In this document: positions 12,536 to 31,733 of the stretch, in pieces
Layout: every line of letters begins with the position of its first letter
How positions within the stretch are numbered: position 1 is the first letter of the stretch
Assembly (NCBI RefSeq): GCF_000020025.1
Contig: NC_010628.1
Coordinates: forward strand, 990,001-1,022,000
Reading direction: 5' to 3'
Length of the DNA: 32,000 nucleotides
Source: Nostoc punctiforme PCC 73102
GTDB taxonomy: Bacteria > Cyanobacteriota > Cyanobacteriia > Cyanobacteriales > Nostocaceae
Notes under the pieces: model-generated
Told to the model about the DNA's origin: nothing
Databases searched by the model: none
The model's input: only the letters and a program-made list of their open reading frames with translations
Position numbers and translations under genes: made by a program

Positions 12536-12780
12536 CTATAAGTCTCCTTACACCTACTTCTCTATATCGACAATAATTGCCAACGCATTATACTTACTGC
12601 TTTAAATCCTTCTTCAACGATTCCAACTTCAGCATATAGAATGCCTTAAATTCTAGGTAAGAAGCAACTAAACCTGGGATATTAGTACTAATTTAAATCC
12701 TAACGAAGCTGATTCACGTTTATACAAACAAAGTCCGCCTCTTCGGACTAATGAAAAATATAGTGCTTCTCGTTTCTATG

Positions 12781-13039
12781 CAATACAGTCTAACCTCTCT
12801 CCTTTTAGGAGCTACGGTGTACACAAAAGTCCTATTACCCCCCTCAATCCCCCCTTTATAAGGGGGGAAGCCGGAAATCTAGTTCCCTCCCCTTTCCAAG
12901 GGGAGGGTTAGGGTGGGGTAAAACCTTGGTCAATAAGCTATTCCAGACTTGTGTGTACACCGTAGCCTTTTAGGAGAGAGGCTTTGAGTTTTACTCCCCT
13001 TCCCTTGCAGAGAAGGGGTTGGGGGTTAGGTCTGTATTG
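12781..13039. mobile_element. MITE-like nested palindromic element, non-coding
   Basis: Outer inverted repeats are CAATACAGTCTAACC (12781-) and GGTTAGGTCTGTATTG (-13039). Inner ~36-bp inverted repeats lie at 12794-12831 and 12946-12981 (CCTCTCTCC..CTACGGTGTACACA.AAGTC). The core holds GC hairpins (CCCCCCTTTATAAGGGGGG, CCCTCCCCTTTCCAAGGGGAGGG) of the kind dispersed in Nostoc genomes. Confidence 0.6.
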
Positions 13040-13115
13040 AACTTAAGTTAGTAGTTAATGCATCACAAAAATGAATTAAGTCGAATTTAATAAGCAAAGT
13101 GGCATTTGACTTACT

Positions 13116-14582: not shown

Positions 14583-16064
14583 ATGGTAAATGCTGCTCAA
14601 GCACGTCAGACAAAAGAGCGATTCGCCCAACCAGAAGAACAACTCACTTATGAATTGGGGAAGGCGGTACAGGAATTGCCACCCCTGTACACGAGGTTAT
14701 TAGCCGGAACAATGAGCGTCATCGTATTTGGAGCGATCGCTTGGGCGTACTTCTCGCAAATAGATGAAGTAGCAACAGCACCAGGGGAATTAATTGCTTC
14801 CACACAGGTTAGACCAGTGACATCCTTGGGTGGGGGGTCAATTGTCGGTGTGAAAGTGCAAGAAGGCGATCGCGTCACCAAAGGTCAAATTCTGATTCAA
14901 AAAGACCCTGACTTGCAAATAACTGATGTTTCCCGCCTAGCCAAATCAACTAGATTGATTCAAGACGATTTGCAACGTTTGGATGCAGAACGTCTTGGAG
15001 GAAAAACCACTGGGACGAAACTACAAGATGAACTTTTAACTTCCCGCCTGCAAGACTACCAAGCGCGTCAAGCAGGAGCAGAAGCAGAAGCAAATCGCCA
15101 AATAGCACTCATCAATCAAGCCAAAGTCCGCTTGACTCGATTGCAAGACAACTTAGCTAATGCCAAAAGCAGCTTTGCTAATGCCAAAACCAACCTTGCC
15201 AACGCAGATAGCATCCGAATTAAAATTGAAAGTAATTTGGCACTTGCACAAGAAAGAGAAAAAAGCTTACGCACCCTAATTACTCCTGGTGCTGTACCTC
15301 GTGTCGATTACTTGGATGCTCAAGAAAGATTGACTCGTGCAAAGACAGAAATTACCAGATCGCAAGATGAAGTGACTAATGCCCAAAATAGAATAACAGA
15401 GGCTCAAGATAAAGTCACATCATTAGAAAAAGATATTGCTGCCCAAGCCCAAGAAATTCACCAAGCAGAACAAGCTTACAAAGCTGCTCGTAGTCAGGCC
15501 CAGCGCATCGCATCAGAACGCCAAAGTGAAATTTTAACTCAGTTCAACAAGCGTAAAGAAGAACTGACAACTGTTCAAGGTCAATTAGAGCAGGCGAGAA
15601 AGCAGCAAGCTTTAGAAACGATTGAGGCTCCCGTTGCCGGTACAATTTACAGAGTCAAAGCCACCAAAGGGCCAGTCCAATCTGGTGAAGAATTGCTGTC
15701 AATTTTGCCAGAAGGGGAAGAAATGCTCTTAGAGGTGAAAGTCCTCAACCGCGATATTGGGTTTATTCGTCAAGGAATGAAGGCAAAAGTGAAAATGGCG
15801 ACTTTCCCCTTCCAAGAATTTGGCGTTGTGGATGGCGAAGTCATGCAAGTCAGTCCGAATGCAATTATTGATAAAGAATTGGGCTTAGTTTTTCCTACAA
15901 GAATTAAGCTAAATAAACATTCTGTTAATGTACGTGGTCAAGAGGTAGAATTTACACCAGGTATGTCTGCTACAGGTGAAATTGTCACTCGTAAAAAGTC
16001 AATTTTGACATTTATTACTGAGCCTGTAACGCGGCGGTTCAATGAGGCATTTTCTGTTAGATAG
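14583..16064 (+). CDS. HlyD-family membrane fusion protein (type I secretion adaptor)
   Basis: 493 aa with a single N-terminal TM segment (LLAGTMSVIVFGAIAWAYF) and a lipoyl-like segment (GELIASTQVRPV...VKVQEGDRVTKGQIL). A ~230-aa coiled coil rich in A/Q/E/R follows, then a C-terminal beta-barrel (IEAPVAGTIYRV...). Confidence 0.88.
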   Translation: MVNAAQARQTKERFAQPEEQLTYELGKAVQELPPLYTRLLAGTMSVIVFGAIAWAYFSQIDEVATAPGELIASTQVRPVTSLGGGSIVGVKVQEGDRVTKGQILIQKDPDLQITDVSRLAKSTRLIQDDLQRLDAERLGGKTTGTKLQDELLTSRLQDYQARQAGAEAEANRQIALINQAKVRLTRLQDNLANAKSSFANAKTNLANADSIRIKIESNLALAQEREKSLRTLITPGAVPRVDYLDAQERLTRAKTEITRSQDEVTNAQNRITEAQDKVTSLEKDIAAQAQEIHQAEQAYKAARSQAQRIASERQSEILTQFNKRKEELTTVQGQLEQARKQQALETIEAPVAGTIYRVKATKGPVQSGEELLSILPEGEEMLLEVKVLNRDIGFIRQGMKAKVKMATFPFQEFGVVDGEVMQVSPNAIIDKELGLVFPTRIKLNKHSVNVRGQEVEFTPGMSATGEIVTRKKSILTFITEPVTRRFNEAFSVR

Positions 16065-16141
16065 GTTTGTAGCCTCTCTTGTTCTTATAACTATTTCAAA
16101 AGTGATGCCTACGCATCCCACAAACCACACCTAAAACGTAA

Positions 16142-16162
16142 GGGTTTAGCATTGCTAAACCC
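16142..16162. terminator. hairpin between the convergent HlyD and subtilase B genes
   Basis: GGGTTTAGC-ATT-GCTAAACCC, a 9-bp perfect stem, read directly. It is a possible bidirectional terminator. Confidence 0.4.
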
Positions 16163-16246
16163 CTAAATTCATTCACAGCAGACAAGTGGGTTGGTTGATT
16201 TTTCTAACCGACTAGTATTTAAATCAACTACAAATCGCTATAATTT

Positions 16247-18226
16247 TTAAGCGATACCTAAGAATTTTTTATACTGATCCATTTGTTTTTGCATTCCCTC
16301 TAGTAGTTTCCAAAAATCAACATTATTCTCATCTTTATTATCATCGTTGCTATCTATATTGATACTGCTCAAAATTTTCTCATAATTTTGAAATTGTGAC
16401 CATAATTCTGAATTGCTTAATCCATTATTACCTTCGGCTGGTGTGAGATATTTTGCTGTTTCTGTAATAGTCTGACCAATTAGAGAACCGACATCGGAAT
16501 TATTCAAACTAGCAATAGTCTCTGGTGTGAGATATTTTGCTGTTTCTGTAAGAGTCTGACCAATTAGAGAACCGACATCGGAATTATTCAAACTAGCAAT
16601 AGTCTCTGGTGTGAGATATTTTGCTGTTTCTGTAATAGTCTGACCAATTAGAGAACCGACATCGGAATTATTCAAACTAGCAATAGTCTCTGGTGTGAGA
16701 TATTTTGCTGTTTCTGTAATAGTCTGACCAATTAGAGAACTGACATCGGAATTATTCAAACTAGCAATAGTCTCTGGTGTGAGATATTTTGCTGTTTCTG
16801 TAATAGTCTGACCAATTAGAGAACCGACATCGGAATTATTCAAACTAGAAATTTTCTGTGATGTCAAATAATTTGCAGTTTGTGCGTCGATATGTAGCAG
16901 GTTGTCGCCAGACATCACTTGCTTTGCCAGAGAACTGACATTAGAAATATTGAAACTAGAGGTTATACTTTGTGAACTATCTGCTGCTGTGTCTGCGTAG
17001 CCCGTCGTAGACATCACTTGCTTTGCCAAAGAACTAACATTAGAAATATTTAAACTAGAGTTTGTACTTTGTGTACTATTTTCTGATGTTTCTGCCACAA
17101 TCTGACGTACTTGGGCATCAGTCAGGCTGGGGTTAGCACTAAGCATCAGGGCAACTACACCAGCAACATGGGGAGTAGCCATAGATGTGCCGCTATAAGT
17201 GGCATACTGATTATTCGGAACTGATGAATAAACCTTGACTCCTGGGGCTGTGACATAAGAGATTTGATTTGTTCCAGAGCGGTTAGAGAAATCCGCCATA
17301 TTATTATTTTTGTCTACTGCCCCAACAGCAATTCCCGCCTTGGATGCATAGCGGGCGGGATAGTCTGGTGATGATTCACCATCATTACCTGCTGCCATGA
17401 CGACAATCACTCCTTTGCTACTGGCATAGTTAATGGCTGACTCCAAAGTCCGATTGGAAGATGTGCCTCCTAAACTGAGGTTAATCACATTAGCTCCATT
17501 ATCCACAGCGTAGCGAATACCTTTAGCTATAGAACTATAGGAACCAGAGCCAGACTCATTTAAAACTTTGACAGGCATAATCTTGGCATCATAAGCAATA
17601 CCAGTGACACCGTAGTTATTATTTTCTCCTGCGATCGTGCCAGAAACATGAGTACCGTGACCATTGTTATCTAGTGTGTTGTTGTTTTTATCCGCAAAAT
17701 TCCACCCGTAATTATCATCAATATAGCCATTGCCATCATCATCTATACCGTTACCCGCAATTTCCTTGGTATTTGTCCAGATATTATTTTTTAAATCCTC
17801 GTGGTTATAGTCAACCCCAGTATCTACAACAGCGACAACAACGCCTTTACCTGTGTATCCTTGTGCCCAAACTTCTGGTGCTTTAACAAGGTCTGCTCCC
17901 CAATTATTACCACCAAGATCAGGAACATCAGCAAAGGTATTCTGATTAGTAGCTTTAGCCACTGCTGCTGCTGCATTAATTAAACCATAGCCATTGGTGG
18001 AGTTATAACTTTGCGTGGTAAAAGCATTAGTCGTAGCGTTACTGTTATTTTCGTAGTCACTATTATTTAGTAACTGCACATCAGAATCGGCTGAGTTGTA
18101 GCTACTACGTATGCTATTGAGGCTGGAGTCATTCTTAGTATTAAATGTATCTAATGAAGAGATTGAAGTAGAATTTAAGCTTTTATTAGTAGAAAACAAA
18201 GTGTTATTAGTATTATCATTGAGCAT
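16247..18226 (-). CDS. S8 (subtilisin-like) serine peptidase 'B' with C-terminal tandem repeats and no signal peptide
   Basis: 659 aa with an intact catalytic triad: VAVVDTGVDYNH (Asp), HGTHVSGTIAG (His), GTSMATPHVAG (Ser). The N-terminal 75 aa are Asn/Ser-rich with no hydrophobic h-region. Residues 386-451 form 2 x 33-aa repeats and residues 448-597 form about 5.5 x 28-aa repeats. The C-terminal ~60 aa are amphipathic and charged. Confidence 0.9.
   Translation of the reverse strand: MLNDNTNNTLFSTNKSLNSTSISSLDTFNTKNDSSLNSIRSSYNSADSDVQLLNNSDYENNSNATTNAFTTQSYNSTNGYGLINAAAAVAKATNQNTFADVPDLGGNNWGADLVKAPEVWAQGYTGKGVVVAVVDTGVDYNHEDLKNNIWTNTKEIAGNGIDDDGNGYIDDNYGWNFADKNNNTLDNNGHGTHVSGTIAGENNNYGVTGIAYDAKIMPVKVLNESGSGSYSSIAKGIRYAVDNGANVINLSLGGTSSNRTLESAINYASSKGVIVVMAAGNDGESSPDYPARYASKAGIAVGAVDKNNNMADFSNRSGTNQISYVTAPGVKVYSSVPNNQYATYSGTSMATPHVAGVVALMLSANPSLTDAQVRQIVAETSENSTQSTNSSLNISNVSSLAKQVMSTTGYADTAADSSQSITSSFNISNVSSLAKQVMSGDNLLHIDAQTANYLTSQKISSLNNSDVGSLIGQTITETAKYLTPETIASLNNSDVSSLIGQTITETAKYLTPETIASLNNSDVGSLIGQTITETAKYLTPETIASLNNSDVGSLIGQTLTETAKYLTPETIASLNNSDVGSLIGQTITETAKYLTPAEGNNGLSNSELWSQFQNYEKILSSINIDSNDDNKDENNVDFWKLLEGMQKQMDQYKKFLGIA
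16436..16885 (-). repeat. 84-bp tandem repeats inside subtilase B: 5 near-identical copies plus a degenerate one
   Basis: GGTGTGAGATATTTTGCTGTTTC starts at 16440, 16524, 16608, 16692 and 16776, an exact 84-bp period. Copies differ by only 1-2 nt. Each encodes ETAKYLTPETIASLNNSDV(G/S)SLIGQT(I/L)T. Confidence 0.95.
16874..17071 (-). repeat. 2 x 99-bp coding repeat inside subtilase B
   Basis: GACATCACTTGCTTTGCC occurs at 16911 and 17010. The copies encode QS(T/I)(N/T)SS(L/F)NISNVSSLAKQVMS... Confidence 0.8.
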
Positions 18227-18425
18227 AATTTTTTTCTCAAAGTTAGAAATGTTTTTTAACAGCTAGAATCGTTAAAACTTTTACTAAACAAAAGTTTTAA
18301 TGAGTAAATAAGCCGTATTGTTAATAAGTACTATGAAATTTAATAATAAAATGCTAATTTTATTACCAAAAAAGTATGATGATAATCATGCTTTTTGCGA
18401 ACAGCTATTTAGAATACGCTTAATT

Positions 18426-18480
18426 GGGGTAAATATAGCGAAGCTGTCACCAGGGGCAAGATAGGCTGAAAGTACTGCGG
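18426..18480 (+). repeat. Tn3-family left terminal inverted repeat
   Basis: GGGGTAAATATAGCGAAGCTGTCACCAGGGGCAAGATAGGCTGAAAGTACTGCGG, read directly. Confidence 0.92.
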
Positions 18481-18541
18481 TGGATGACTTTCAGACTATA
18501 AGATTAAGAGACATACGAACAAAGCGTATTTTTAGACACAT

Positions 18542-21500
18542 TTACCCCGTCTCAATTGGCAACCTGACATTAAGATCCAAACGAAAAGTACCATAGGGAT
18601 TAACGTGACCCCAAATTAAAGGCGAAAGCGCCCGCAAATCCTCCAACTTCATCAACTTCATCCATTGTGGTTGGGACAAAACCTCCTGAATCATCAACGT
18701 ATTTATATATACCAAAGATATCTGGAGTAAATGCAGAGATAACACAGCTAATTCTTGGTCAGACAAACGATTAGTAGCAATCTCCCCACCCTTGCCGTAA
18801 AAAATAAAACTGTTAGCACTATTCCAGTTCTCCACCACGTTGAGTCCAGCATTTATCTCTTGTCGCAGTTCAACCGAATGCAGGTATTTACATAAAAATA
18901 TAGTTTTTACAGCCTTGCCCAATTCCGCCAAGGCTTGATAAGTAGGGTGTAATAAATTACCCCTAGTAAAACGCTTTAAGATGGCTTCAGTTTCTGCCAT
19001 ACCCAAACGCAAAGCAGTAGCATACTTCACCATTTGGTCGTATTGTTGGCGAATTAAATCCCAATTAATAGCGCGAGTTAAAATAGGTTGCAAGTTTGGA
19101 TAAGCATCATTATTTCCAGTTGAAGGACGGTATAATTTCTGAACATTGATACGTTTAAGACGCGGCATTAACTGAAAACCCAGTAAATGACAGAAAGCAA
19201 AAGCCACTTCATTTTGACCGTGACTATCCACATAATTTGTCTCCACTTTCATCTCAGTACAGTGGCGTAATAATCCTTCAATCATGGCTGCCACTTCAGA
19301 AGAAGAACAAGTTTTTAACTGTGAATAAATACAAACAGAATTCTTCTCAACGTGCCAATAAATCATCACACCTCTTCCACCATAACGGATGTGCCACTCA
19401 GTCATTAAGTTTTGATCCCAAGCACCAAACTTTTTCGAGTCAGAAGCACAGGCGGTTGTACCCTCTCCCCAAATAGTAGAAATTCTGGCAGTAAAAATTG
19501 CATTTGCAATACAGGCAATAGCATTACGTAATTGTTCTTTCTGAATAAAATGACGCTTAACATGGAGTAAATCTTGATAATTGTCGCCTTTAATCTCATC
19601 ACTTAAACGCTTTAATCCAGTATTCGTTCCTAAACCATATAAACAAAGTAGCAAGCGTTTTTGTAAAGTATATTCGCCTAAAACCTCTCGTGTTGATACA
19701 CTCTGAAAGTGTTGGCTAAACTTAACTCGCAAATCAGTCTCTTTCAGAATATCTAAGAGGCTAGTCATGCGCCAACGCCTAGTAATTTCAGTTTTCAACC
19801 TAGTCAAATTAGTCGGTTCATTTTGAGGATTCAGAGGAGAAACACAAATTCGACTTTTGCCTGTCGTTTTAAGTGTGACTAAACTATTTTTAGGTATTCC
19901 TTTATCCAGTAAAGTTAATGATTGCTCCAAAGATTGCTGTAAATTAGCAATAAAGACTTCTACATCGGATGGTTGTTTCAAAGCTTGGAAATATTCTAAT
20001 CTTTGCGCCTCAAAATCAGCAGGTAAATCTTCTTCAGGGTTTCTGTAACGATTAGCTCCTACAACCCATATTTCCTTGCATCTCAGCTTTTCTCTCAATG
20101 CTTGCAGCACGCTCAACTCATAATTAATGCGATTAACTTTGATTTCATCGTCTGCTCCCGTCTCTAATATAATTTCTTGCCAACCACTACGTAATACCCC
20201 CTCAATGGGTATATCTTCTCCAGCATCATAATAACGCTGTTTACTATCAGCATACTTTTTTAGTAAAGATATCGCTTGAATAACTGGACGATGAACTTCA
20301 TTATTTGAACGAAATTCGAGCTTGTTTAAAATTAACGGTAAAATTCGCCGATAATATCCACCATAAGAAGAGCGCATCACCGTATAAACTTTCTCACGGT
20401 AAGCATTCCCTGTAGATTTATACTCTTTCACTAAATTCTTGAGAGTCACTTCACTTACTACAGGAAAAATCACATCCTTGACTGTGCCATCAGGTGTTTT
20501 CAAGGAAGCTTCTGCCATTTGGTATAGTAGATTATTCTTCCCATGAACCCGTTTAAAATCCTGAATAAGCTCTTTATCTACACGTTTTTCTGCATTCACA
20601 CCTATGCGATGGACAATCTGAATGAGTAACTCTACTAAATTATCTATAACTTCTTGACTTCTGAGCCAACAAAAAGCTGTAAATAGTGTGTAGCGAATAT
20701 GTTCTGGGTGACGGCGTAAGTCACGAGGATGTTCAACAATTACCCGACTTTTATAGACTTGGAGAACTTTGGTAGAGATGTTTTTAAATAAGTCTGTTGG
20801 TAATTCTAATTGCTCAAAAATCTCTAATTTAGCAACTTCCTTTTGAAAACTTTCTACACCAATTCTCCCTGGGTCTGTTTTTAATTCAGCCCATGTTAAT
20901 CTAGTCACTTCAGTGTTTATTTCTGAGTTATTCGTGTCATCTAACTGTTGAGATAATTGGATATCTCCTGGATTATTCAGTTGTTTATCATGATTTGTTT
21001 GTGTGGTATCATCTAATTCCTGATCGGAAGCTTTCTCTTTCAAAAAATCATTTATCCACTTTTTAGATTGGTTAGATAGTTGGGAAGTTATGTCCCGAAA
21101 AAATTTAGATTCAAAATTTCTGATAGCAGAGCGAATGATACGTTCTAATCTGGAATCTGTCGGTGGTTCAAGTTTTAAATTCCGTAGTCTCGCTACTGCT
21201 GCAAGTTTTAGCTGTTCAAATTTTAACTCATAAATTAGTGCTTGTTCTGCTAACCAATTAGTTAACTCAAAAGCATCACTAACTTTGGTTTCTTGAAATC
21301 CAAAGAATTCTCTAATTTGAGCGCGATGATATTTTATGGAGCGTCCTTGCCAATCGTAGTAAGAGTACTTTTGGGGGGAAATATCTAAAAGTTTGGCAAC
21401 ATAATCAACAACATTTTGGGAGATTTCTTGATTATTCTCAGGAAATCTGGCATAAATCTCAAAAAACTTGAGCAATATAGCAAAACCTAACCGATTTTCG

Positions 21501-21586
21501 TCGTTTTTCTGATTCAGTAGTGCTAATTCAAGAGGGAGTAGCGTCCAATACTCTACTAATTCTTCTGGCTGCCAGGTTTTTTTCAT
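18542..21586 (-). CDS. tnpA: Tn3-family DDE transposase TnpA
   Basis: 1014 aa, the typical Tn3 TnpA length. The N-terminal DUF4158-like segment reads [22 protein letters not shown]-terminal catalytic-region contexts are [29 protein letters not shown] and [19 protein letters not shown]. The gene ends 62 bp inside the left IR. Confidence 0.93.
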
Positions 21587-21707
21587 TAAGTCTCACTCTT
21601 CAACCAAACAGTATTCTATCTTCTTTGGGGTAACAATCTTTAACTGAGATAAAATGCTGTTTCTCGATGAAAAACATACTGGAACTGAGTGATTCTATAT
21701 AATTGCC

Positions 21708-22622
21708 CTAAAGGTCAGCTTTTTGGTCGGAATTAATCAGTATATTCAAGGCATGACGTGCAGCTGATTCTGATTTCTGTGAGGTGACTTTAGCGTAACG
21801 TAAAGTTGTTTGAATGCTTTCATGTCCCATTAATGAGCATAATTCCTCAATACTGATTAACCCCACTCGTTCTGTAGCAAATGTATGTCGTAAATCGTGA
21901 ATGCGAACTCCTTGAAGGTGTGGATACTTATTGGTTGTCTCCCGCCAATAATCATGCAATGTATGGTAGCTGATTCTACTTACTTTTCGGGTAACTGGAT
22001 GTTGTGCTGTAAACAAGGCATTCGTATTTTGATGCCGTGAGTATTTCAAGTATTTAGCAAGCATTGAGGCTGCGTCATCACTGTAAAAACACCAGCGTTG
22101 TTTGTTGCCTTTACCTAATACTTGAAATTTCTGGTTCTTGATATCTACAGAATCTATGTTTAGGGCTAAAAGCTCTCCTATTCTGCATCCTGTGCGATGC
22201 AGTAAATGAACTATCGTACTTAGACGTAAGTCATCTTTTACGGCAGAATATAGTATATTTAGTTGTGATTGTGTTAGATATCTTATTGTCTCGTCGCTTT
22301 TATGTTCGCCTTTCTCTCTTTCAGGTAGACGTTGTTTTAGTCCCCGGATAGGGTTGGATTTTATATACCCTTGTTCTACTGCAAAGTTAAGCAAACTTTG
22401 TAATATTGCTTGATGCTTGTGGTGTGTTGTGTATTTTAAATGACTGAGATTATTTAGATACTCAACTAATGTTTGCTTACTGATAATTTCTATTGACCAA
22501 CTTCCATACTTTTGCAGTAAAAGTCCGAGGGTCAGTTCATAGGTTTCTCTAGTACTTGGTGCTAGACCAGGACGCTCTAGAAATTCGGTCGTGACAGTGG
22601 CTAAAGTTACAGCCGATTTCAC
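21708..22622 (-). CDS. tyrosine site-specific recombinase (TnpI/XerCD-like), probable cointegrate resolvase
   Basis: 304 aa with an N-terminal SAM-like core-binding domain. Catalytic contexts are HRTGCRIGELLAL (Arg), IHDLRHTFAT (His-x-x-Arg) and LMGHESIQTTLRYAKV (His...Tyr). It is co-directional with tnpA and upstream of it, as in Tn4430-type elements. Confidence 0.85.
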   Translation of the reverse strand: MKSAVTLATVTTEFLERPGLAPSTRETYELTLGLLLQKYGSWSIEIISKQTLVEYLNNLSHLKYTTHHKHQAILQSLLNFAVEQGYIKSNPIRGLKQRLPEREKGEHKSDETIRYLTQSQLNILYSAVKDDLRLSTIVHLLHRTGCRIGELLALNIDSVDIKNQKFQVLGKGNKQRWCFYSDDAASMLAKYLKYSRHQNTNALFTAQHPVTRKVSRISYHTLHDYWRETTNKYPHLQGVRIHDLRHTFATERVGLISIEELCSLMGHESIQTTLRYAKVTSQKSESAARHALNILINSDQKADL

Positions 22623-22699
22623 GGTTGTTTCTGTATTCTCTCGCTTGGTTTTTTATTGATAAATTATATATCTTTTTATGAGTTAGCCCTGAGCTTTTT

Positions 22700-23167
22700 A
22701 TGGATACTTTTAAAACTCCCAATAGCGATGAATCCCTTGCTAGTTACGTGTCACGGGTCAGGAAGAAACTCAATTTAACTCAGTCTGAGTTGGCGGATGC
22801 TGCTGGTATACATGGACGCTCTGTCGGGAAAATCGAGCGAGGACTTACGCTTAAAATTAATCGTAGGACACTTCAAGGGTTAGCGATCGCACTTGGCGTA
22901 CCTCAAGAATATTTTGATGCTGTGATCAAGGGTGAGGAAGTATCTCAGGTTAGAGGGGTTAAGTTTTGTCCCCAATGTTGGAATCCTGGCGCGGCGGTTG
23001 ACCCTATGTGGAGTCATATCAAAGCCAAGTTTTGTTATCTCTGCGGTACACCGATTCGAGCTAACTGTGCGAATTGCGGTGAGTTGGTGTTGTCTTTGAG
23101 ACACCGATTTTGTCCAATTTGTGGCTGTGCTTATAAAACGCCTGTCAAAACCGCTAAAATCCAATAA
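22700..23167 (+). CDS. XRE-family HTH protein with C-terminal double zinc ribbon
   Basis: 155 aa. The HTH reads LNLTQSELADAAGIHGRSVGKIERG. Four CxxC pairs follow: CPQC, CYLC, CANC, CPIC. It is divergent from the recombinase gene and lies inside the transposon. Confidence 0.75.
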   Translation: MDTFKTPNSDESLASYVSRVRKKLNLTQSELADAAGIHGRSVGKIERGLTLKINRRTLQGLAIALGVPQEYFDAVIKGEEVSQVRGVKFCPQCWNPGAAVDPMWSHIKAKFCYLCGTPIRANCANCGELVLSLRHRFCPICGCAYKTPVKTAKIQ

Positions 23168-23193
23168 TCAACTCTTTTTCTCAAACCCAGACT

Positions 23194-23248
23194 CCACAAT
23201 ACTTTCAGCCTATCTTGCCCCTGGTGACAGCTTCGCTATATTTACCCC
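23194..23248 (-). repeat. Tn3-family right terminal inverted repeat
   Basis: The reverse complement reads GGGGTAAATATAGCGAAGCTGTCACCAGGGGCAAGATAGGCTGAAAGTATTGTGG. Confidence 0.92.
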
Positions 23249-23262
23249 TAATTACAAAATAA

Positions 23263-23300
23263 GCGGCAGAATGAGCAGCAAACGCCACTCATTCTGCCGC
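23263..23300 (-). terminator. intrinsic terminator of subtilase A
   Basis: A 13-bp perfect stem (GCGGCAGAATGAG/CTCATTCTGCCGC) with a 12-nt loop lies about 50 nt after the stop. On the minus strand it is followed by TTATTTTGTAATTA. The transposon TSD lies in this T-rich tail. Confidence 0.75.
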
Positions 23301-23350
23301 GTATAGAAAATTCTATTTTACTTTTGATAAACGACACTTAAGTGATTATT

Positions 23351-26300
23351 CTATGCCAAGCTATTTGCTGCTGTCGTTGTGACAATCTGACGCACTTGGG
23401 CATCAGTTAGACCTTTCTTAGCACTGAGCATCAAAGCTATTACCCCGGCAACGTGAGGAGCCGCCATAGACGTTCCATCTTCAAAACCATATTTATTGCC
23501 CGGAAGTGTCGAGTGGATACCGATTAATTGATGCCCATCTTCTGCAACTAGATCCAGGTCGCCTTCAAAGTATGCTCCAGGAGCTGTAACGTATGCCAGT
23601 GGAGTTTTTCCCGGCGGGTTAGAGAAGCTGGTCAATACGTGATTATAGTAGACTGCCCCAACAGCCAGTCCCCAATCAGTTGCATATTGGGCTGGATAAT
23701 ATGGTGAGACTGCACCATTTTCACCTTCATTACCTGCTGCTGAAACGACGATCGCGCCCTTGCTGGCAGCATATTGAATGGCTGACTTTTCATCGCTGTT
23801 AGGAGAAGAGCTACCTAAGCTGAGGTTAATAACATTAGCTCCATTATCCACTGCATAACGAATACCATTTGCGATCGCACTACTAGTACCTTGACCACCG
23901 CTATTCAAAACTTTCACCGGCATAATCTTGGCATTATAGGCAATCCCAGTAACACCAAAGTTATTTTTGACTGCTGCTATAGTACCAGCAACATGAGTAC
24001 CATGACCGTTGTCGTCTAATGGATTGTTATTGTTGCCAACGAAGTTCCAGCCGTTGACATCATCAATGTAGCCATTGCTATCATCATCTTTGCCGTTGCC
24101 AGCGATTTCCTTGGTATTCTTCCAGATATTAGCGCTCAAATCTGAGTGATTGTAATCTACTCCACTATCTATCACAGCGACGATCGTACCTTGACCAGTG
24201 TATCCCTTTGCCCAAACTTCTGGTGCTTTAATTGCGTCGGCTGCCCAATTATCACCACCCAAGTCAGTCACATCAGCAAACGTACTCTGACCTAAAGCTT
24301 TCGCTACGGCGGCGGCGGCATTAATTAAGCCATAACCTGTAGTTGAGTTAAACCCGCCACCATTGACAGGATTTAAGGTAATTGGTGTGTTGATGTAAAC
24401 GCCGTTGTTACCTTCATTGCTTTCAACAATATTTCCTGGTCCATCGGCTTTAAATATCAGGTAGTATTTACCAGCACTAATAGTAGGAGCAAGCGTAATA
24501 GATGTGGAGCGAGAAGTAACGGCAGAAGGTGCCAGAGTAGAACTACCCTCAATTTCAGTACCTAAACTGATATCATCATCACCAAATGCTGTATCTCGTG
24601 AAAGATAAAAACTTGTCTTACTCCCTCCAGTACTGCCAGTACCTTGGTTTTTCAGTTGATAATTAACTAGGAGTGTAGTACCAATAGCAGCACTACTAGC
24701 AGATGTAGCATTTTGGATGACCAAATCTGGTGCAGTAATTGCGATCGCTTTGGCAACAACATTGTTGTTTTCATTGCTTTCTTTCAATGACGAAGTAGTT
24801 CCTTGTGCTTTGTACAGCAGATAGTAATTACCAGTGGTAATGGTGCTGGGGATGTACAAAGATGTAGATTCTGAACTTACAGCAGAGGGTGCAAGATCGT
24901 TAAAGTTATTAATTAAGTCAGAACCTAAATAGATATCATCATTGCTGAAGTTTCCATCTTTGGAAAGATAAAAGTATGTAGAGCTAAAAGTAGCCTTGCC
25001 GTTACCTTGGTTTTTGACTTGATAGCTGAGTGGGATTGAAGTGGCAATGTTAGCGCTAGCAGGAGCCGAAGGATTTTGTACTATTAGGTCTGGTTGAGAG
25101 CCATTAATCGCGATCGCTTTGCTGACAATGTTATTAGTTTCGTTGCTTTCGCCAATATTGCCATTAGCATCGGCTTTATACAACAGATAATAGTTACCTG
25201 CGGCGATCGCATTGTTAATGATGAGCGATGCTGTCTCTGAGCTAGTAGCACCTGCGGCAATAGCGTTAACGCCATCGGAGCCTAACAATACATCGTCATT
25301 ACTAAAGGCATTATCCTTGGATAGATAAAACTTGGTGGTAGTTGCAACAGCACCACCAACGCCTTGATTTTTCACCTGATAGCTGAGTTGAATGGTGCTA
25401 CCAACGGCTGTTGTAGTGGGAGCTATAGCGTTTTGTATTATTAAGTCTGCTTGGGTAATAGCGATCGCTTTACTAGCAAAGTTATTGGTTTCATTGCTCT
25501 CAACAGCACTTCCTGCGCCGTCAGCTTGATAGAGCAAGTAATAGTTACCTGTAGCGATCGCATTGTTAACGATTAGCGATGCTGTTTCTGAGCTAGTAGC
25601 GCCTGCGGCAATAGCGTTAACACCATCTGAGCCGAGCAACACATCATCATTACTAAAAGCATTATCCTTGGATATATAAAACTTGGTGGTAGTTGCAACA
25701 GCACCACCAACACCTTGATTTTTCACCTGATAGCTTAGTTGAATAGTGCTACCAACTGATGCTGTACTAGGGGCTGAGGTATTTTGAACTATCAGGTCTG
25801 ATTTTTGAGTTGGAGTAATGGTGATTACTCCGGCAATACCGTTGTTAGTTTCATTGCTTTCAGCAACATTCCCATCACCATCGGCTATGTATGCTAGATA
25901 ATAATTCCCAGCAGTGATGTTACTGCCAAGACTGAGTGTGGTTGACTCGGAACTATAACTACCCGCAGCAATGCCGCTAACGTAGTCATAGCCCAAGTAC
26001 ACATCTTCGTTTCCGATATTTAAATCTTGAGAGAGATAAAACTTGGTGTTACTAGCAACAGCACTAGCATTGCCTTGGTTTTTGATTTGATAGTTTAGTT
26101 GAATGCTACTTCCAACCGCCGCCGAACTGGGATTTGAGGTATTTTGTACTATCAGGTCTGGTTTAGTAATATTAATTACGTCAGCAACAGCATTATTGTT
26201 TTCGTTGCTTTCGGCAACATAGTTATAGCCATCGGCTTGATACACCAGATAATAGCTTCCTGCGGCGACGCTATTGCCGATGGTGAGTGTGGTTGACTCT

Positions 26301-26773
26301 GACCGATAGTAACCAGATAGGATGTTATCAACGTAGTCATCGCCTAAAAATATATCTTCACTCCCTAAAGAGAGATCCTGAGACAGATAAAACTTGGTAT
26401 AGCTATAACCAGCACTGGCATTGCCTTGGTTTTCAATTTCATAGCTCAGTTGAATGGTACTGCCAGCTGCGGCAGAACTGGGAGTTGAAACGCTACGTGC
26501 TATCAGATCTGGCTGAATAGCAGCAGCGATCGCTTGAGTAGCATTTCCGTTGTGACTACTCTTCTTGGCATAATTGTTTTTAACTCCGGAAGGGTCGATT
26601 TCCGTAGAAGTATAACTACTGCGATCGCTGGATATAAAACTATTTACACCACTCAGACTGAAGCTAGAGTCAGTATTCTGATTATCAAAAATATTAGATT
26701 TTTTTGATGGTAGAAAGCTGGCTTTTATACCAGAATTTTCATTAATAGAGTTACGGTCTTTGGTAAAAAACAT
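23351..26773 (-). CDS. S8 (subtilisin-like) serine peptidase 'A' with six N-terminal CARDB-type repeats and no signal peptide
   Basis: 1140 aa. Residues 1-87 are Asn/Ser-rich with no hydrophobic core. Residues 88-803 form six ~117-aa repeats (PDLIVQN.S.P...VGS.IQLSY.VKNQG......TKFYLS.D......D..LG......AAG....E...L........G.YYL.Y.AD....V.ESNE.NN), matching the CARDB pattern. Residues 804-1140 are the S8 domain with VAVIDSGVDYNH, HGTHVAGTIAA and GTSMAAPHVAG. Confidence 0.9.
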   Translation of the reverse strand: MFFTKDRNSINENSGIKASFLPSKKSNIFDNQNTDSSFSLSGVNSFISSDRSSYTSTEIDPSGVKNNYAKKSSHNGNATQAIAAAIQPDLIARSVSTPSSAAAGSTIQLSYEIENQGNASAGYSYTKFYLSQDLSLGSEDIFLGDDYVDNILSGYYRSESTTLTIGNSVAAGSYYLVYQADGYNYVAESNENNNAVADVINITKPDLIVQNTSNPSSAAVGSSIQLNYQIKNQGNASAVASNTKFYLSQDLNIGNEDVYLGYDYVSGIAAGSYSSESTTLSLGSNITAGNYYLAYIADGDGNVAESNETNNGIAGVITITPTQKSDLIVQNTSAPSTASVGSTIQLSYQVKNQGVGGAVATTTKFYISKDNAFSNDDVLLGSDGVNAIAAGATSSETASLIVNNAIATGNYYLLYQADGAGSAVESNETNNFASKAIAITQADLIIQNAIAPTTTAVGSTIQLSYQVKNQGVGGAVATTTKFYLSKDNAFSNDDVLLGSDGVNAIAAGATSSETASLIINNAIAAGNYYLLYKADANGNIGESNETNNIVSKAIAINGSQPDLIVQNPSAPASANIATSIPLSYQVKNQGNGKATFSSTYFYLSKDGNFSNDDIYLGSDLINNFNDLAPSAVSSESTSLYIPSTITTGNYYLLYKAQGTTSSLKESNENNNVVAKAIAITAPDLVIQNATSASSAAIGTTLLVNYQLKNQGTGSTGGSKTSFYLSRDTAFGDDDISLGTEIEGSSTLAPSAVTSRSTSITLAPTISAGKYYLIFKADGPGNIVESNEGNNGVYINTPITLNPVNGGGFNSTTGYGLINAAAAVAKALGQSTFADVTDLGGDNWAADAIKAPEVWAKGYTGQGTIVAVIDSGVDYNHSDLSANIWKNTKEIAGNGKDDDSNGYIDDVNGWNFVGNNNNPLDDNGHGTHVAGTIAAVKNNFGVTGIAYNAKIMPVKVLNSGGQGTSSAIANGIRYAVDNGANVINLSLGSSSPNSDEKSAIQYAASKGAIVVSAAGNEGENGAVSPYYPAQYATDWGLAVGAVYYNHVLTSFSNPPGKTPLAYVTAPGAYFEGDLDLVAEDGHQLIGIHSTLPGNKYGFEDGTSMAAPHVAGVIALMLSAKKGLTDAQVRQIVTTTAANSLA
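24365..26512 (-). repeat. array of six ~351-bp CARDB-encoding repeats; copies 3 and 4 are nearly identical
   Basis: The protein periodicity is read from the translation. The DNA of copies 3 and 4 (around 25250-25440 versus 25600-25790) is collinear with only scattered substitutions. Confidence 0.85.
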
Positions 26774-26958
26774 TAAGCTGTTTCACCTCGTATATGCAAG
26801 TAAATTCGCACCATAATAAGTACTCAAATCCTTGATATATAAGGGATTGAGCCGGAAAATATTTCTTTGTAAGACAGGTGCTACAAATACACTTAACTAT
26901 AAAGTCACGTAATTAGCAAGTAAGATTACAGTTTTCTGCATACTTAAGAAATTCAAAA

Positions 26959-26985
26959 GGCGAATAGAGTGTAACTCCATTCGCC
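26959..26985 (-). terminator. intrinsic terminator of the ABC exporter gene
   Basis: The minus strand reads GGCGAATGGAGT-TAC-ACTCTATTCGCC, a 12-bp stem with one G-U pair, followed by TTTTGAATTTCTT. It lies about 65 nt after the stop codon. Confidence 0.75.
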
Positions 26986-27050
26986 AAAGACTATATTTAA
27001 GCTGCTTTTCAAGTATCAAATAAGCACAAATTAAAAGCTTGTTAAAGCTA

Positions 27051-29750: not shown

Positions 29751-30481
29751 TTCTCAAATAACTCATTTTGTAGTGCTTGCTTGAGTTGAGTATCTTCTAA
29801 AGACGCTGGCAGAAATTGTTCTACTCGAAACAAACCATAAGGTCCTTCTCCTTGGGGAGAGTCTTTGCCAACGATTTCTATTGGTCCTATTAATTGTCCA
29901 GGACTTGCCACATCAATAGCAGCCCGTAATATATCCGGCATACTTCCTCGGCTGACTATTCCCATCATGCCGTTCACAATTCGGTCATCTGAAAGTGAAT
30001 ACTCTTTAGCTAGTTGCTCAAAACTACCTCCTTCTTCAATTTGGGTTTGTAGTTCGTCTGCCAATTCTCGATTATTAACAACTATCCGAGATAGTACTAT
30101 CCGATCCAAAAAGATTTTGCGTTCAATAAAATATTCTTGGATTTTTGGTTCCGTAACTACAGCTTTCAGCTTTTCTAACTTGTAACCAAAAGTAACTGAT
30201 GTGTGAAATGTGGCGTAATCTGTGTTATTGGTTTTTAACCATTCTTGAAAACTTTGGGGATCAGTTAGTTGATTTTTCAGTCTAAAGTCAATAATGGCCT
30301 GTTCGGTTATCGCTGTACCAATTTCAATATCGTCTCGTGTTCGGATTTCTTCCTCAATTACGTGCTGGCGGAGAATATCTCCAATGAACTGCCCCAATTT
30401 TCCAGAGGCTTGCAGGTACTTTACAGCTTCCTCAATAGAAATTATTTGGTCATTAATTGTCAAAAATGATAAAGATTCCAT
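29699..30481 (-). CDS. parvulin-type peptidyl-prolyl isomerase (PpiC/SurA-like), no signal peptide
   Basis: 260 aa. The rotamase core reads IVLSRIVVNNRELADELQTQIEEGGSFEQLAKEYSLSDDRIVNGMMGIVSRGSMPDILRAAIDVASPGQLIGPIE...GLFRVEQ. The N-terminus MESLSFLTINDQ is not hydrophobic. Confidence 0.8.
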   Translation of the reverse strand: MESLSFLTINDQIISIEEAVKYLQASGKLGQFIGDILRQHVIEEEIRTRDDIEIGTAITEQAIIDFRLKNQLTDPQSFQEWLKTNNTDYATFHTSVTFGYKLEKLKAVVTEPKIQEYFIERKIFLDRIVLSRIVVNNRELADELQTQIEEGGSFEQLAKEYSLSDDRIVNGMMGIVSRGSMPDILRAAIDVASPGQLIGPIEIVGKDSPQGEGPYGLFRVEQFLPASLEDTQLKQALQNELFEKWLAEKIQKLTVKLQVS

Positions 30482-30881: not shown

Positions 30882-31733
30882 CTACTTAATGATATTTATC
30901 CATGTCCAGGAAAGTAGCACAGCCGCGATCGCACCGATTAATGTATTAAAAATATTTACTACCTCATTGGTCAGCCAGGTATACTTAGATTGCAACGTTG
31001 CCCCAATCACACTTTCTAAGTTTGTGGCAATAAATGCTGCCAGTACACACCAAGCGACTCCTAATAGATCGATTAAACCAACTCCCCAACCAACAAATGC
31101 GATCGCTACAGAAGCCACGATACCTGCTAAAGTTCCCTCCAAGCTTACAGCTCCTTCTGTACCACGAGGCACTGGTTTGAGTGTGGTAATTAGAAAGGTG
31201 CTTTTACCATACGCTTTACCAACTTCACTTGCGGTAGTGTCAGCCAGTTTGGTACTGAAACTCGCTACATAGCCTAGTAATAATAGGGACTGGAGACTTG
31301 TACTGAGCGCAGCCGGAGTATTGGGAACTAAAGACTTGTACTGAGCAAAGTCGAAGTATTGGGAACTAGGTAAAATAAATCCCGAATTTATTATCCCTAC
31401 TCCCAAGGCACACAGCGCCCCGGTCAAAGCTGAACCCCAGACATTCTCCGGGCCCCTAGCCCCAGAACGCTTTTCGGCAATTCCTTCAGCCTCTTTCTGC
31501 GCCATCCCGATGCGGGTAACACCAGAACCAACCAGAAAATAAAACATTACTACTGTATATCCTTGCCAGCCTAGAGTTACCCAAATTAGGATAGCCAGAA
31601 ACCACGCATGAAATGATCCAGCAGGCGTAAGTAGCTTTTTCGGAGCAATCCAAGCTAAACCCAATAGAATTGTGTTTAATACTACTGCCACCAACCAGGG
31701 ATTAACAGAATCAATTAAGGATGACATCAGCAA
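30882..31733 (-). CDS. DUF92/TIGR00297-family integral membrane protein (VTE6 phytyl-phosphate-kinase-like)
   Basis: 283 aa and polytopic. The motifs VMFYFLVGSGVTRIGMAQKEAEGIAEKRSGARGPENVWGSA and FSTKLADTTASEVGKAYG are typical of the DUF92 family, to which plant VTE6 and Synechocystis Sll0875 belong. Confidence 0.8.
   Translation of the reverse strand: MLMSSLIDSVNPWLVAVVLNTILLGLAWIAPKKLLTPAGSFHAWFLAILIWVTLGWQGYTVVMFYFLVGSGVTRIGMAQKEAEGIAEKRSGARGPENVWGSALTGALCALGVGIINSGFILPSSQYFDFAQYKSLVPNTPAALSTSLQSLLLLGYVASFSTKLADTTASEVGKAYGKSTFLITTLKPVPRGTEGAVSLEGTLAGIVASVAIAFVGWGVGLIDLLGVAWCVLAAFIATNLESVIGATLQSKYTWLTNEVVNIFNTLIGAIAAVLLSWTWINIIK

Follow-up and report, generated by a model that had tools for sequence, protein, structure and literature searches.

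A Putative Type I Secretion Locus of Nostoc punctiforme with Two Leaderless Subtilases as Candidate Cargo

Described systems related to the locus

The closest described counterpart of the locus is found in a genome-mining catalogue of putative bacteriocin clusters (Wang, Fewer and Sivonen 2011, PLoS One 6:e22384, PMC3140520). Its 'group VI', from heterocystous strains, consists of a SurA-like rotamase, a long-type CAP_ED-C39 ABC protein, an HlyD protein and an S8 protease. In that catalogue the S8 protease is taken for a processing enzyme, the C39 domain is regarded as a peptidase, and 0.33 precursors were counted per cluster, those being DUF37 proteins (PMC3140520). Group I of the same catalogue, with 57 clusters, has PPIase, ABC and HlyD without S8 and occurs in nearly all cyanobacteria (PMC3140520). 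The initial annotation of the Nostoc punctiforme PCC 73102 locus knew of no described system of this kind; this was wrong, since the cluster type was published as group VI in 2011. All four group VI genes are present in our locus, related loci are all from Nostocales, and the likeness extends to an identical parts list, an S8 protease with COG1572/CARDB and hardly any precursor peptides. The locus departs from the group VI description in that its C39 domain has lost the catalytic residues, its ABC protein is of the HlyB type, its S8 proteases are argued to be cargo and a Tn3 element has inserted.

Among characterised type I systems, HlyB/HlyD/TolC of E. coli shares with the locus a non-catalytic C39-like N-terminal domain, an adaptor of the TIGR01843 family and, presumably, an outer-membrane component that is encoded elsewhere. 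Among known transporters, those that have a C39-like domain carry RTX proteins out by means of a C-terminal signal, and the presence of substrate genes inside the operon is the rule in characterised type I systems (hlyCABD, aprDEF-aprA). The ABC protein of the locus differs from HlyB by an extra cyclic-nucleotide-binding-like domain and by its coupling to a PrsA-like protein. Unlike haemolysin, the candidate substrates lack RTX nonapeptides and are not accompanied by an acyltransferase; their conserved element is N-terminal, and many homologues manage without the C-terminal tail. AprDEF-AprA of Pseudomonas and PrtDEF of Dickeya resemble the locus in that an exoprotease gene adjoins the transporter genes and the substrates are leaderless and acidic. 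However, their ABC proteins have no N-terminal domain, and the proteases are RTX metalloproteases rather than S8 subtilases.

For a cytoplasmic chaperone, a precedent is provided by SecB, which keeps HasA secretion-competent for the HasDEF system (PMC8277102), although SecB is a general rather than a dedicated chaperone. The order of C39, transmembrane and ATP-binding domains, the C39 fold and the HlyD-type partner are shared with PCAT1, ComA and PteB/EbfG of Synechococcus elongatus. These peptidase-containing ABC transporters differ from the exporter of the locus, in which the catalytic Cys and His are absent, which has no double-glycine peptides nearby and which scores below the family cut-offs. 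PrsA and SurA combine a chaperone domain with a parvulin domain in the same way as the parvulin-like protein of the locus. The latter, however, has neither signal peptide nor lipid anchor, carries Arg in place of a catalytic His and is encoded by a gene that overlaps that of an ABC exporter.

Layout and conservation of the locus

The window, that is, the whole stretch of 32,000 nucleotides that was analysed, holds the genes listed in Table 1. They are best explained as a chromosomal, Nostocaceae-wide group VI cluster that encodes the inner-membrane components of a type I system and, probably, the substrates as well.

Table 1. Features of the locus, with positions in the window
Feature	Position	Strand	Remarks
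HlyD-family type I secretion periplasmic adaptor, 493 aa	14583-16064	+	TIGR01843; Pfam HlyD_3 and HlyD_D23
Terminator-like hairpin behind the repeat-type S8 gene, in the interval between the convergent S8 and HlyD genes	16139-16165	-	12 base pairs
Leaderless S8 subtilase with tandem repeats, 659 aa	16247-18226	-	Pfam Peptidase_S8 1.9e-66
Its amphipathic C-terminal tail	16250-16327		
Its tandem repeats	16438-17095		99 nt x 1.9 and 84 nt x 5.3 (TRF)
Its S8 domain	17069-17851		
Its 49-aa N-terminal motif	18080-18226		
TAATT duplication, first copy	18421-18425		5 bp
Tn3-family transposon, 4823 bp	18426-23248		DDE_Tnp_Tn3, inverted repeats, target duplication
Tn3 transposase	18542-21586	-	DDE_Tnp_Tn3 478 bits
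Tyrosine recombinase in the transposon	21708-22622	-	
Regulator with HTH and double zinc ribbon in the transposon	22700-23167	+	
TAATT duplication, second copy	23249-23253		5 bp
Strong terminator hairpin after the CARDB-S8 gene	23263-23300	-	17 base pairs (10 G-C), then T-run
Leaderless S8 subtilase with six CARDB repeats, 1140 aa	23351-26773	-	Pfam CARDB and Peptidase_S8
Its C-terminal S8 domain	23366-24196		
Its six CARDB repeats	about 24314-26491		
Intrinsic-terminator-type hairpin and T-run directly after the ABC gene	26959-26985	-	12 base pairs, then TTTTGAATTT
HlyB-subfamily type I secretion ABC permease/ATPase, 899 aa	27051-29750	-	TIGR01846
PrsA/SurA-like parvulin protein, 260 aa	29699-30481	-	Pfam Rotamase

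The coordinates agree with the initial annotation, which had placed a PPIase gene, an ABC gene and two S8 genes on one strand and a convergent HlyD gene opposite. The reported overlap of PPIase and ABC also holds: the two ORFs share 52 nt here and in all 69 related loci. The two S8 genes are indeed paralogous and lie on the same strand, but they do not neighbour each other, since the transposon intervenes.

We regard the two leaderless subtilases as candidate cargo of the type I exporter. This reading best explains the sequence data, and we put its probability at roughly 55%. The ABC protein, the HlyD adaptor and a TolC-like protein encoded elsewhere (HgdD in Anabaena) would export the subtilases unfolded and in one step. 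The ABC protein would contribute two binding modules stripped of their original chemistry, one cyclic-nucleotide-binding-like and one C39-like, and the parvulin-like protein, presumably cytoplasmic and translationally coupled to the ABC protein, would act as a holdase. Once outside the cell, the subtilases would fold into surface or extracellular proteases bearing CARDB, FG-GAP or 28-residue repeats. The identity of the genes, the degeneration of the domains, the synteny, the lack of signal peptides and the transposon are established by the analysis; the role of the proteases as cargo, the role of the holdase and the part of the protease that is recognised are what we infer.

The conservation of the gene order was assessed in 69 related loci whose sequence extends 6 kb or more downstream of the ABC gene; all sampled loci are from Nostocales, with an ABC identity of at least 81%. 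An S8 gene lies downstream on the same strand in 60 of them and directly between the ABC and the convergent HlyD genes in 45, and nine have no S8 gene within 10 kb. In most loci the gene next downstream of ABC is the repeat-bearing S8 gene, and a CARDB paralogue is present in 11 of the 69. Nodularia has the same order of PPIase, ABC, S8 and HlyD genes, with an IS element in the locus, and in Scytonema different leaderless proteases, S8-PPC and C2-PPC, flank the PPIase-ABC pair. A leaderless S8 gene between ABC and HlyD is thus found in most of the Nostocaceae examined, as the comparative survey proposed with the initial annotation had anticipated. The overlap in every locus, the frequency of S8 and of HlyD, the order in Nodularia and the different proteases in Scytonema all argue for the subtilases as cargo. 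Against it stand the nine loci that have no S8 gene nearby and the sampling of a single order at such high ABC identity, since the synteny could have been inherited rather than selected.

The linkage may instead be historical: the exporter would move unlinked cargo of the RTX or hemolysin-type calcium-binding kind, and the subtilases would leave the cell otherwise (by vesicles, lysis or an unknown pathway) or act inside it. This is a possible explanation, though on balance an unlikely one. The near-universal occurrence of PPIase-ABC-HlyD without S8 in cyanobacteria speaks for it, and also against the subtilases as cargo, as the module is then not dedicated to subtilases by origin. It is also consistent with the ABC protein being 81-97% identical across Nostocales whereas the proteases differ greatly in length and at their termini, and with the cluster being split in some genomes, such as L014, which has unrelated genes downstream of the ABC gene, and L007, which has no nearby HlyD gene. 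However, a merely inherited linkage sits poorly with an S8 gene that has stayed between ABC and HlyD in 45 of the 69 loci despite the Tn3 insertion, the Nodularia IS element and the gain and loss of the CARDB paralogue. It also fits poorly with the presence of different leaderless proteases beside the Scytonema pair and with the rule that substrate genes are embedded in characterised type I operons.

The element between the protease genes is a Tn3-family transposon. Besides its transposase and recombinase it has terminal inverted repeats of 70 nt, 89% complementary and beginning with GGGG, and it is flanked by the TAATT duplication. An empty site is also available for comparison, as the window minus the element and one TAATT aligns colinearly with loci L004 and L003 across the junction. 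Relatives of the element were found on cyanobacterial plasmids. The insertion is likely to be recent and strain-specific.

Of eight sequences compared, seven keep the hairpin after the ABC gene (the window, L003, L004, L006, L010, L025 and L032), and compensatory and wobble changes occur among them. Each S8 gene has a hairpin of its own, and L003 and L004, which lack the insertion, share that of the CARDB-S8 gene. Given the conserved terminator downstream of the ABC stop codon, co-transcription of the proteases with the ABC gene is improbable; they would form separate transcription units, and the earlier view that PPIase-ABC transcription reads into the proteases is doubtful. The terminator counts against the subtilases as cargo and is in keeping with a historical linkage.

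The exporter, its adaptor and the parvulin-like protein

The ABC protein consists of a cyclic-nucleotide-binding-like fold (about aa 20-147), a disordered linker, a C39-like domain (about aa 195-320), a transmembrane domain and an ATP-binding domain. It passes the HlyB-subfamily model TIGR01846 (785.4 bits, cut-off 725.55), and its closest solved relative is HlyB (7sgr, 598 bits, E 2e-178), with PCAT1 at 1e-100. Its score for TIGR01842, which describes type I systems for proteases and lipases, is 360, below the cut-off of 510. The adaptor passes TIGR01843 (277.2 bits, cut-off 208.65) and has one N-terminal transmembrane helix at about aa 46-66, with the highest Kyte-Doolittle 12-residue window (2.15) at residue 46. 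The assignment of the two proteins as the inner-membrane pair of a type I system is borne out by these matches, which also favour the subtilases as cargo. As had been noted, an outer-membrane gene is absent from the locus: no OEP/TolC gene was found within the 32-kb window. The gene for HgdD, the TolC homologue of Anabaena, lies elsewhere (PMC4390845).

The N-terminal domain had been described as a degenerate sensor, and this description is apt. Its score for cNMP_binding (PF00027) is 16.3 bits, below the Pfam gathering cut-off of 27.5, yet an AlphaFold model compared by Foldseek resembles the CNB-B domains of PKG (TMt 0.65-0.70). The phosphate-binding cassette reads GDWFGALQKLSADFKAVAA, with Ala for Glu and Lys114 for Arg when residues are assigned by eye. 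The fold is thus retained in the model, and the Glu and Arg of the ligand site are replaced. The C39-like domain gave chance matches only when the isolated region was searched against the PDB with phmmer, and its model resembles the PEP domain of ComA and the CLD of HlyB (3zua) at TMt 0.60-0.63. Thr202 occupies the position of the catalytic Cys, and residues 195-330 contain no His. The domain is therefore catalytically dead, while the model suggests that it keeps the C39 fold. Thr202 and Lys114 are invariant in 20 Nostocales sequences. The retention of both modelled folds with their key residues invariantly replaced is a further argument for the subtilases as cargo.

A dead C39-like domain also bears on the interpretation of Wang et al., in which the locus would export bacteriocin-like peptides encoded elsewhere and the S8 proteases would be LanP-like processors that replace the lost C39 activity. 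Leader removal would then need a separate protease. In addition, group VI was classed as a putative bacteriocin cluster with the S8 protease proposed for additional cleavage sites (PMC3140520), and the PPIase shows a distant relationship to TIGR04500, 'peptide maturation system protein' (54.3 bits, below the cut-off of 180). However, the ABC protein passes the HlyB model and fails both bacteriocin-exporter models (TIGR01193, 388 against 523.85; TIGR03796, 439 against 853.3). No double-glycine-leader genes were found among ORFs of at least 20 aa in the five intergenic regions of the locus, and the low precursor count of group VI, made up of DUF37 proteins, agrees with this; both observations favour the subtilases as cargo. 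The six CARDB repeats, the FG-GAP repeats of related proteases and the access of a leaderless protease to exported peptides would all be left unexplained. A processing role is accordingly considered improbable.

The parvulin-like protein matches Pfam Rotamase with 32.8 bits (cut-off 21.7), over profile positions 19-85 of 97 only, and its best solved relatives are PrsA foldases (5htf, 4wo7). In the PrsA alignment the query 'lsRivv' lies over 'SHIL', so that the first catalytic His is Arg; the region of the second reads GLFRVE against GYHII, as judged by eye. The protein has probably lost its isomerase activity, to go by this alignment. The initial annotation had allowed for either a holdase or a foldase; isomerisation being improbable, the protein would act as a holdase, a role for which the SecB-HasA precedent lends the cargo reading some support.

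PrsA is required for the folding of secreted proteases in Bacillus. Since the closest solved relatives, PrsA and SurA, act outside the cytoplasm, the parvulin-like protein could itself be exported or extracytoplasmic and, as a foldase, assist the secreted subtilases there. With the proteases it shares an acidic pI (4.76) and the lack of both Cys and a leader. However, neither a signal peptide nor a lipobox nor a recognisable type I secretion signal is found in it, and translation coupled to that of the ABC protein is what one would expect of a stoichiometric partner in the cytoplasm. A single-sequence AlphaFold model was unusable (pLDDT 40.5) and lends no help to an external location, which we consider very improbable.

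The subtilases as candidate substrates

Both proteases carry the triad motifs D(T/S)G, HGTH and GTSMA(T/A)P, read directly as DSG, HGTH and GTSMAAP in the 1140-aa protein, and score 224.7 and 207.5 bits for Peptidase_S8. Neither has a hydrophobic N-terminus of the Sec or Tat type, as had been claimed: the highest Kyte-Doolittle 12-residue windows in their first 70 residues are 0.27 and 0.85, and no RR motif was found in either N-terminus. No Inhibitor_I9 propeptide was matched by Pfam, and no RTX GGxGxD motif was detected in either protein. The 659-aa protease (pI 4.41, no Cys) has the near-perfect tandem repeats that were reported for it, with 5.3 copies of the 84-nt unit at 96% matches (TRF). 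In the 1140-aa protease (pI 4.43, no Cys), a hydrophilic N-terminus of about 95 aa precedes the CARDB repeats, of which Pfam confirms six stretches (2.4e-114), and the S8 domain (3.4e-61), beyond which there is no C-terminal extension.

All 73 S8 ORFs linked to related loci have a pI of 4.1-5.1, 0-2 Cys and no hydrophobic N-terminus. Leaderless, acidic and Cys-poor proteins are typical of type I substrates in general (PMC11424642), and the shared properties argue for the subtilases as cargo. The same holds for the varied extracellular-type modules that are fused to the S8 domain, namely CARDB, FG-GAP and PPC. The missing RTX repeats argue against it, given that the known cargo of transporters with a C39-like domain is RTX proteins with a C-terminal signal, and they would suit a historical linkage. 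The amphipathic C-terminal tail of the 659-aa protease hardly qualifies as an essential signal, since the CARDB paralogue lacks it and only 151 of 237 family members (64%) have it in full. FG-GAP paralogues, like those with CARDB, stop at the S8 domain, which also counts against the subtilases as cargo.

The 49-residue N-terminal motif is far better conserved. It occurs in 231 of the 237 homologues (97%), beginning at residue 1 in 194 of the 231, and is hydrophilic, with the consensus MLxDDVNNNLxSNKxLNxTSISSLDTFNTKDDYSLNxxGRSSYNS. An HMM of the motif, run over 9970 ORF segments from 85 related loci and the window, found S8 proteins only, one of them in Scytonema. A phmmer search of the motif against 1.84 billion representatives gave zero matches and missed the orthologues too. 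Between the repeat-type and CARDB-type paralogues, the N-termini align by hhalign (P 0.009, probability 4.7%), but too weakly for the motif to be called common to both. A conserved 'DLGG' was considered as a double-glycine leader and rejected, as the S8 domain starts with it and it lies in the interior of the CARDB paralogue. As the motif persists while the C-terminal tail is often lost, it could be a new type I targeting signal, recognised by the dead C39-like domain and possibly gated by the degenerate nucleotide-binding-like domain, with the PrsA-like protein as a dedicated cytoplasmic holdase. We offer this as a speculative proposal that is more probably wrong than right by a wide measure. 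If true, the system would be an intermediate between bacteriocin export by N-terminal leaders and HlyA-type export by C-terminal signals, used for large folded enzymes.

Published exoproteomes offer leads. Those of cyanobacteria contain many proteins that have no signal peptide and whose routes and signals are largely unknown (PMC11424642; bioRxiv 10.64898/2026.06.08.730779). The majority of Anabaena exoproteins are of this kind (bioRxiv 10.64898/2026.06.08.730779), a point in favour of a historical linkage of the subtilases to the exporter. A 51.46-kDa 'protease', Alr0996, was reported in two Anabaena exoproteomes. Alr0996 (Q8YY56) has a mass of 51,460.5 Da, and the S8 family includes members of 51.4-51.5 kDa, none of them identical in sequence; no PCC 7120 member of the family was found in the clusters examined. 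The product of all0997 is not an HlyD protein. Among the entries listed in the EXCRETE supplement, the sole S8 protease of Nostoc punctiforme is the Sec-dependent B2J0L2.

Taken together, the locus holds a putative exporter-cargo pair that is compact and widely conserved. If the proteases are not cargo, it is an ordinary, already catalogued cluster that carries a transposon. If they are, they would provide a secretion tag for biotechnology and an example of a transporter with a C39-like domain that is able to handle non-RTX enzymes, and a function would be at hand for the PPIase/ABC/HlyD module of nearly all cyanobacteria.

The locus and its earlier classification

All five genes listed in the initial annotation for 14583-30481 were located (see table), and its account of degenerate modules and leaderless proteases was largely confirmed. 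The remainder of the window holds chromosomal housekeeping genes (asd, tig, clpP, clpX and others). The DUF92/TIGR00297 gene directly upstream of the PPIase gene occupies the same place in every related locus examined (Nostoc, Nodularia, Scytonema, Fortiea) and is probably unrelated to secretion. The FAD_binding_3 match of the 167-aa ORF is confined to profile positions 268-333 of 349, and this ORF is probably a gene fragment.

Features of the window (coordinates within the window)
Feature	Position	Strand	Remark
Parvulin-like protein (PPIase), 260 aa	29699-30481	-	
ABC exporter, 899 aa	27051-29750	-	
S8 subtilase with six CARDB repeats (CARDB-S8), 1140 aa	23351-26773	-	
S8 subtilase with tandem repeats (repeat-type S8), 659 aa	16247-18226	-	
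HlyD-family gene, 493 aa	14583-16064	+	convergent
Tn3-family transposon, 4823 bp	18426-23248		between the two protease genes
DUF92/TIGR00297 membrane-protein gene	30882-31733	-	
TIR (N-terminal) and GUN4-like (C-terminal) protein, 308 aa	11609-12535	-	
FAD_binding_3 ORF, 167 aa	7765-8268	-	

The system had been taken as undescribed. The same gene set was, however, defined in 2011 as group VI of the putative bacteriocin clusters (Wang, Fewer and Sivonen 2011, PMC3140520): a SurA-like rotamase, a long-type CAP_ED-C39 ABC protein, HlyD and an S8 protein, for which COG1572/CARDB was noted. The parts list of the window is exactly the same. Group VI clusters occur mostly in heterocystous strains, and almost no precursor peptides were detected (PMC3140520). 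Since the PPIase-ABC-HlyD module also occurs without S8, as group I, in nearly all cyanobacteria (PMC3140520), it did not originate as a subtilase-specific system.

When one genome per species was scanned, 80 orthologous loci came up, all in Nostoc and close relatives, and loci of Nostoc PCC 7524, Scytonema, Fortiea and two Nodularia were added. Linkage was counted over the 69 loci in which 6 kb or more of sequence follows the ABC gene; these come from one order, with ABC proteins at least 81% identical. An S8 gene lies downstream of the ABC gene on the same strand in 60 of the 69, a convergent HlyD gene follows it directly in 45, and 11 have the extra CARDB-S8 paralogue. Because this order recurs, the linkage, for which a comparative check had been proposed, is not unique to the strain. 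In Scytonema hofmannii PCC 7110 (L083, 1-7944 and 12758-14722), other leaderless proteins are encoded on either side of the PPIase-ABC pair (S8-PPC, calpain-like C2-PPC, a 515-aa S8 protein with the N-terminal motif described below and a 654-aa repeat protein), and HlyD was not found within 10 kb of the pair.

The exporter, its adaptor and the PPIase

With 785 bits, the ABC protein exceeds the cut-off (725.55) of the NCBIfam model for HlyB-subfamily type I secretion, and it falls below those of the bacteriocin-exporter and PrtD-type models. Its closest solved structure is E. coli HlyB (E 2e-178), with PCAT1 and ComA far behind, and the HlyD adaptor passes TIGR01843 (277 bits against 208.65). 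A structure model of ABC residues 1-340 (pLDDT 73-90 across residues 20-147) matches cyclic-nucleotide-binding domains (TMt 0.65-0.70) and also C39 or C39-like domains, among them that of HlyB (3zua). Both N-terminal modules are degenerate. The sensor scores 16.3 bits against Pfam cNMP_binding (cut-off 27.5), and in its phosphate-binding cassette, GDWFGALQKLSADFKAVAA, Glu is replaced by Ala and Arg by an invariant Lys; in the C39-like domain the catalytic Cys position is taken by an invariant Thr202, and residues 195-330 contain no histidine. The initial annotation was therefore right on both modules.

The PPIase and ABC genes overlap by 52 nt in the window and in all 69 related loci; the overlap is real, since conservation of the ABC protein extends to its very first residue. 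No signal peptide was found on the PPIase, whose nearest solved relatives are the foldases PrsA and SurA, matched in the chaperone region as well as the parvulin region. The Pfam match is limited to the middle of the parvulin profile, the first catalytic His is Arg in PrsA alignments and the second, read by eye, is apparently Phe, which makes a binding protein more likely than an isomerase. That the PrsA-like protein acts as an exported foldase is very improbable.

Transcription units and turnover of the locus

The PPIase-ABC pair had been thought to read into the protease genes. A hairpin with a T-run directly follows the ABC stop codon, compensatory changes keep its pairing in six further genomes, and a separate hairpin belongs to each protease gene; from these features PPIase-ABC most probably forms an operon by itself, with the proteases as separate transcription units. 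The central part of the CARDB-S8 terminator hairpin (23263-23300) is inverted relative to the related loci L004 (16290-16335) and L003 (16778-16819), which this segment matches better in reverse orientation. Another locus, L025, carries directly after the ABC stop codon an insertion of ~370 nt (12713-13080) with short CCCCCTTGTC-type direct repeats that is absent from the window and other loci.

The two S8 genes are present as annotated; the transposon parting them had gone unmentioned. It is intact, with a Tn3 transposase (478 bits), a tyrosine recombinase, an HTH and double-zinc-ribbon regulator, 70-nt inverted repeats beginning GGGG and a flanking 5-bp TAATT duplication. The insertion site is intergenic, just beyond the CARDB-S8 terminator. 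Without the element and one TAATT, the window is colinear (~90% over 443 nt) with two related Nostoc genomes in which the locus is uninterrupted, which marks the insertion as recent and strain-specific. Related transposons (~77% identity) are found on Fischerella, Nostoc and Dolichospermum plasmids.

DNA between the linked genes turns over, through this Tn3 element, an IS element in Nodularia, CARDB-S8 deletions and a rearrangement in L014. Remnants of the 3' part of the CARDB-S8 protease domain lie just downstream of the ABC gene in L005 (13209-13397), L009 (13022-13192) and L008 (~12770-12900). As such remnants occur in loci that lack the paralogue, the two-protease state appears to be older, with CARDB-S8 deleted in several lineages. 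It is possible, though doubtful, that the ABC-S8-HlyD linkage is simply inherited and that the exporter carries other cargo.

The subtilases as candidate cargo

Both S8 proteases have intact catalytic motifs, a pI of 4.4 and zero cysteine, and their S8 domains are ~64% identical. As had been claimed, neither has a Sec/Tat-type N-terminus: both are free of hydrophobic N-terminal stretches and twin-arginine motifs, and I9 propeptides and RTX motifs are likewise absent. All 73 S8 ORFs beside orthologous ABC genes share these features, with a pI of 4.1-5.1 and 0-2 cysteines. The modules joined to the linked S8 domains differ between genomes (CARDB repeats, FG-GAP repeats or, in variable copy number, tandem repeats of 28 residues), and in Scytonema the proteases flanking the PPIase-ABC pair bear PPC domains. 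These features would fit extracellular proteins unable to use Sec or Tat. The 28-residue (84-nt) repeats of repeat-type S8 (16250-17095 region) are 96-99% identical in DNA, and the length of the protein varies between 459 and 643 aa in different Nostoc strains.

The amphipathic C-terminal tail, which had been listed among the extracellular-type modules, fared less well. Of 237 homologues of repeat-type S8, 151 have it complete and 19 truncated, and in 67 it was not detected; it is missing from the CARDB and FG-GAP paralogues and is a weak candidate for a secretion signal. C-termini are truncated or alternative in about one third of the homologues, e.g., ...SNDKLLGNYLYSWV. A hydrophilic 49-residue N-terminal motif is present in 231 of the 237, beginning at residue 1 in 194, with only marginal similarity to the CARDB-S8 N-terminus. 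In an HMM search of 9970 ORF segments (85 related loci and the window) it was seen on S8 proteins only.

On the simplest interpretation (probability about 0.55), the type I system would export the leaderless subtilases whose genes lie between those of the ABC protein and HlyD, and the PrsA-like protein would serve as a cytoplasmic holdase. SecB provides a precedent as holdase for HasA (PMC8277102). Known transporters with C39-like domains export RTX proteins, whereas the window proteases lack RTX repeats; this, the non-conserved C-terminus and the narrow sample of one order count against them as cargo. Wang et al. regarded the group VI S8 protein as a processing enzyme (PMC3140520). Such a role is unlikely here, as no double-glycine-leader ORFs were found in the intergenic regions searched and the ABC protein passed the HlyB model but failed the bacteriocin-exporter models. 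A tentative lead for S8 export is Alr0996, a 51.46-kDa 'protease' in two independent exoproteomes of Anabaena PCC 7120 under diazotrophic growth, which fits the window S8 family by mass.

The export interpretation in the initial annotation is supported in part: the type I exporter, the leaderless S8 proteins and the linkage stand, whereas co-transcription is unlikely, the C-terminal tail is a weak signal candidate and the cluster type had been described before. The locus belongs to this catalogued type, read here as a variant type I secretion system for which the subtilases are candidate cargo and into which a transposon has inserted. It offers a reasonable target for experiments, but no surprise.
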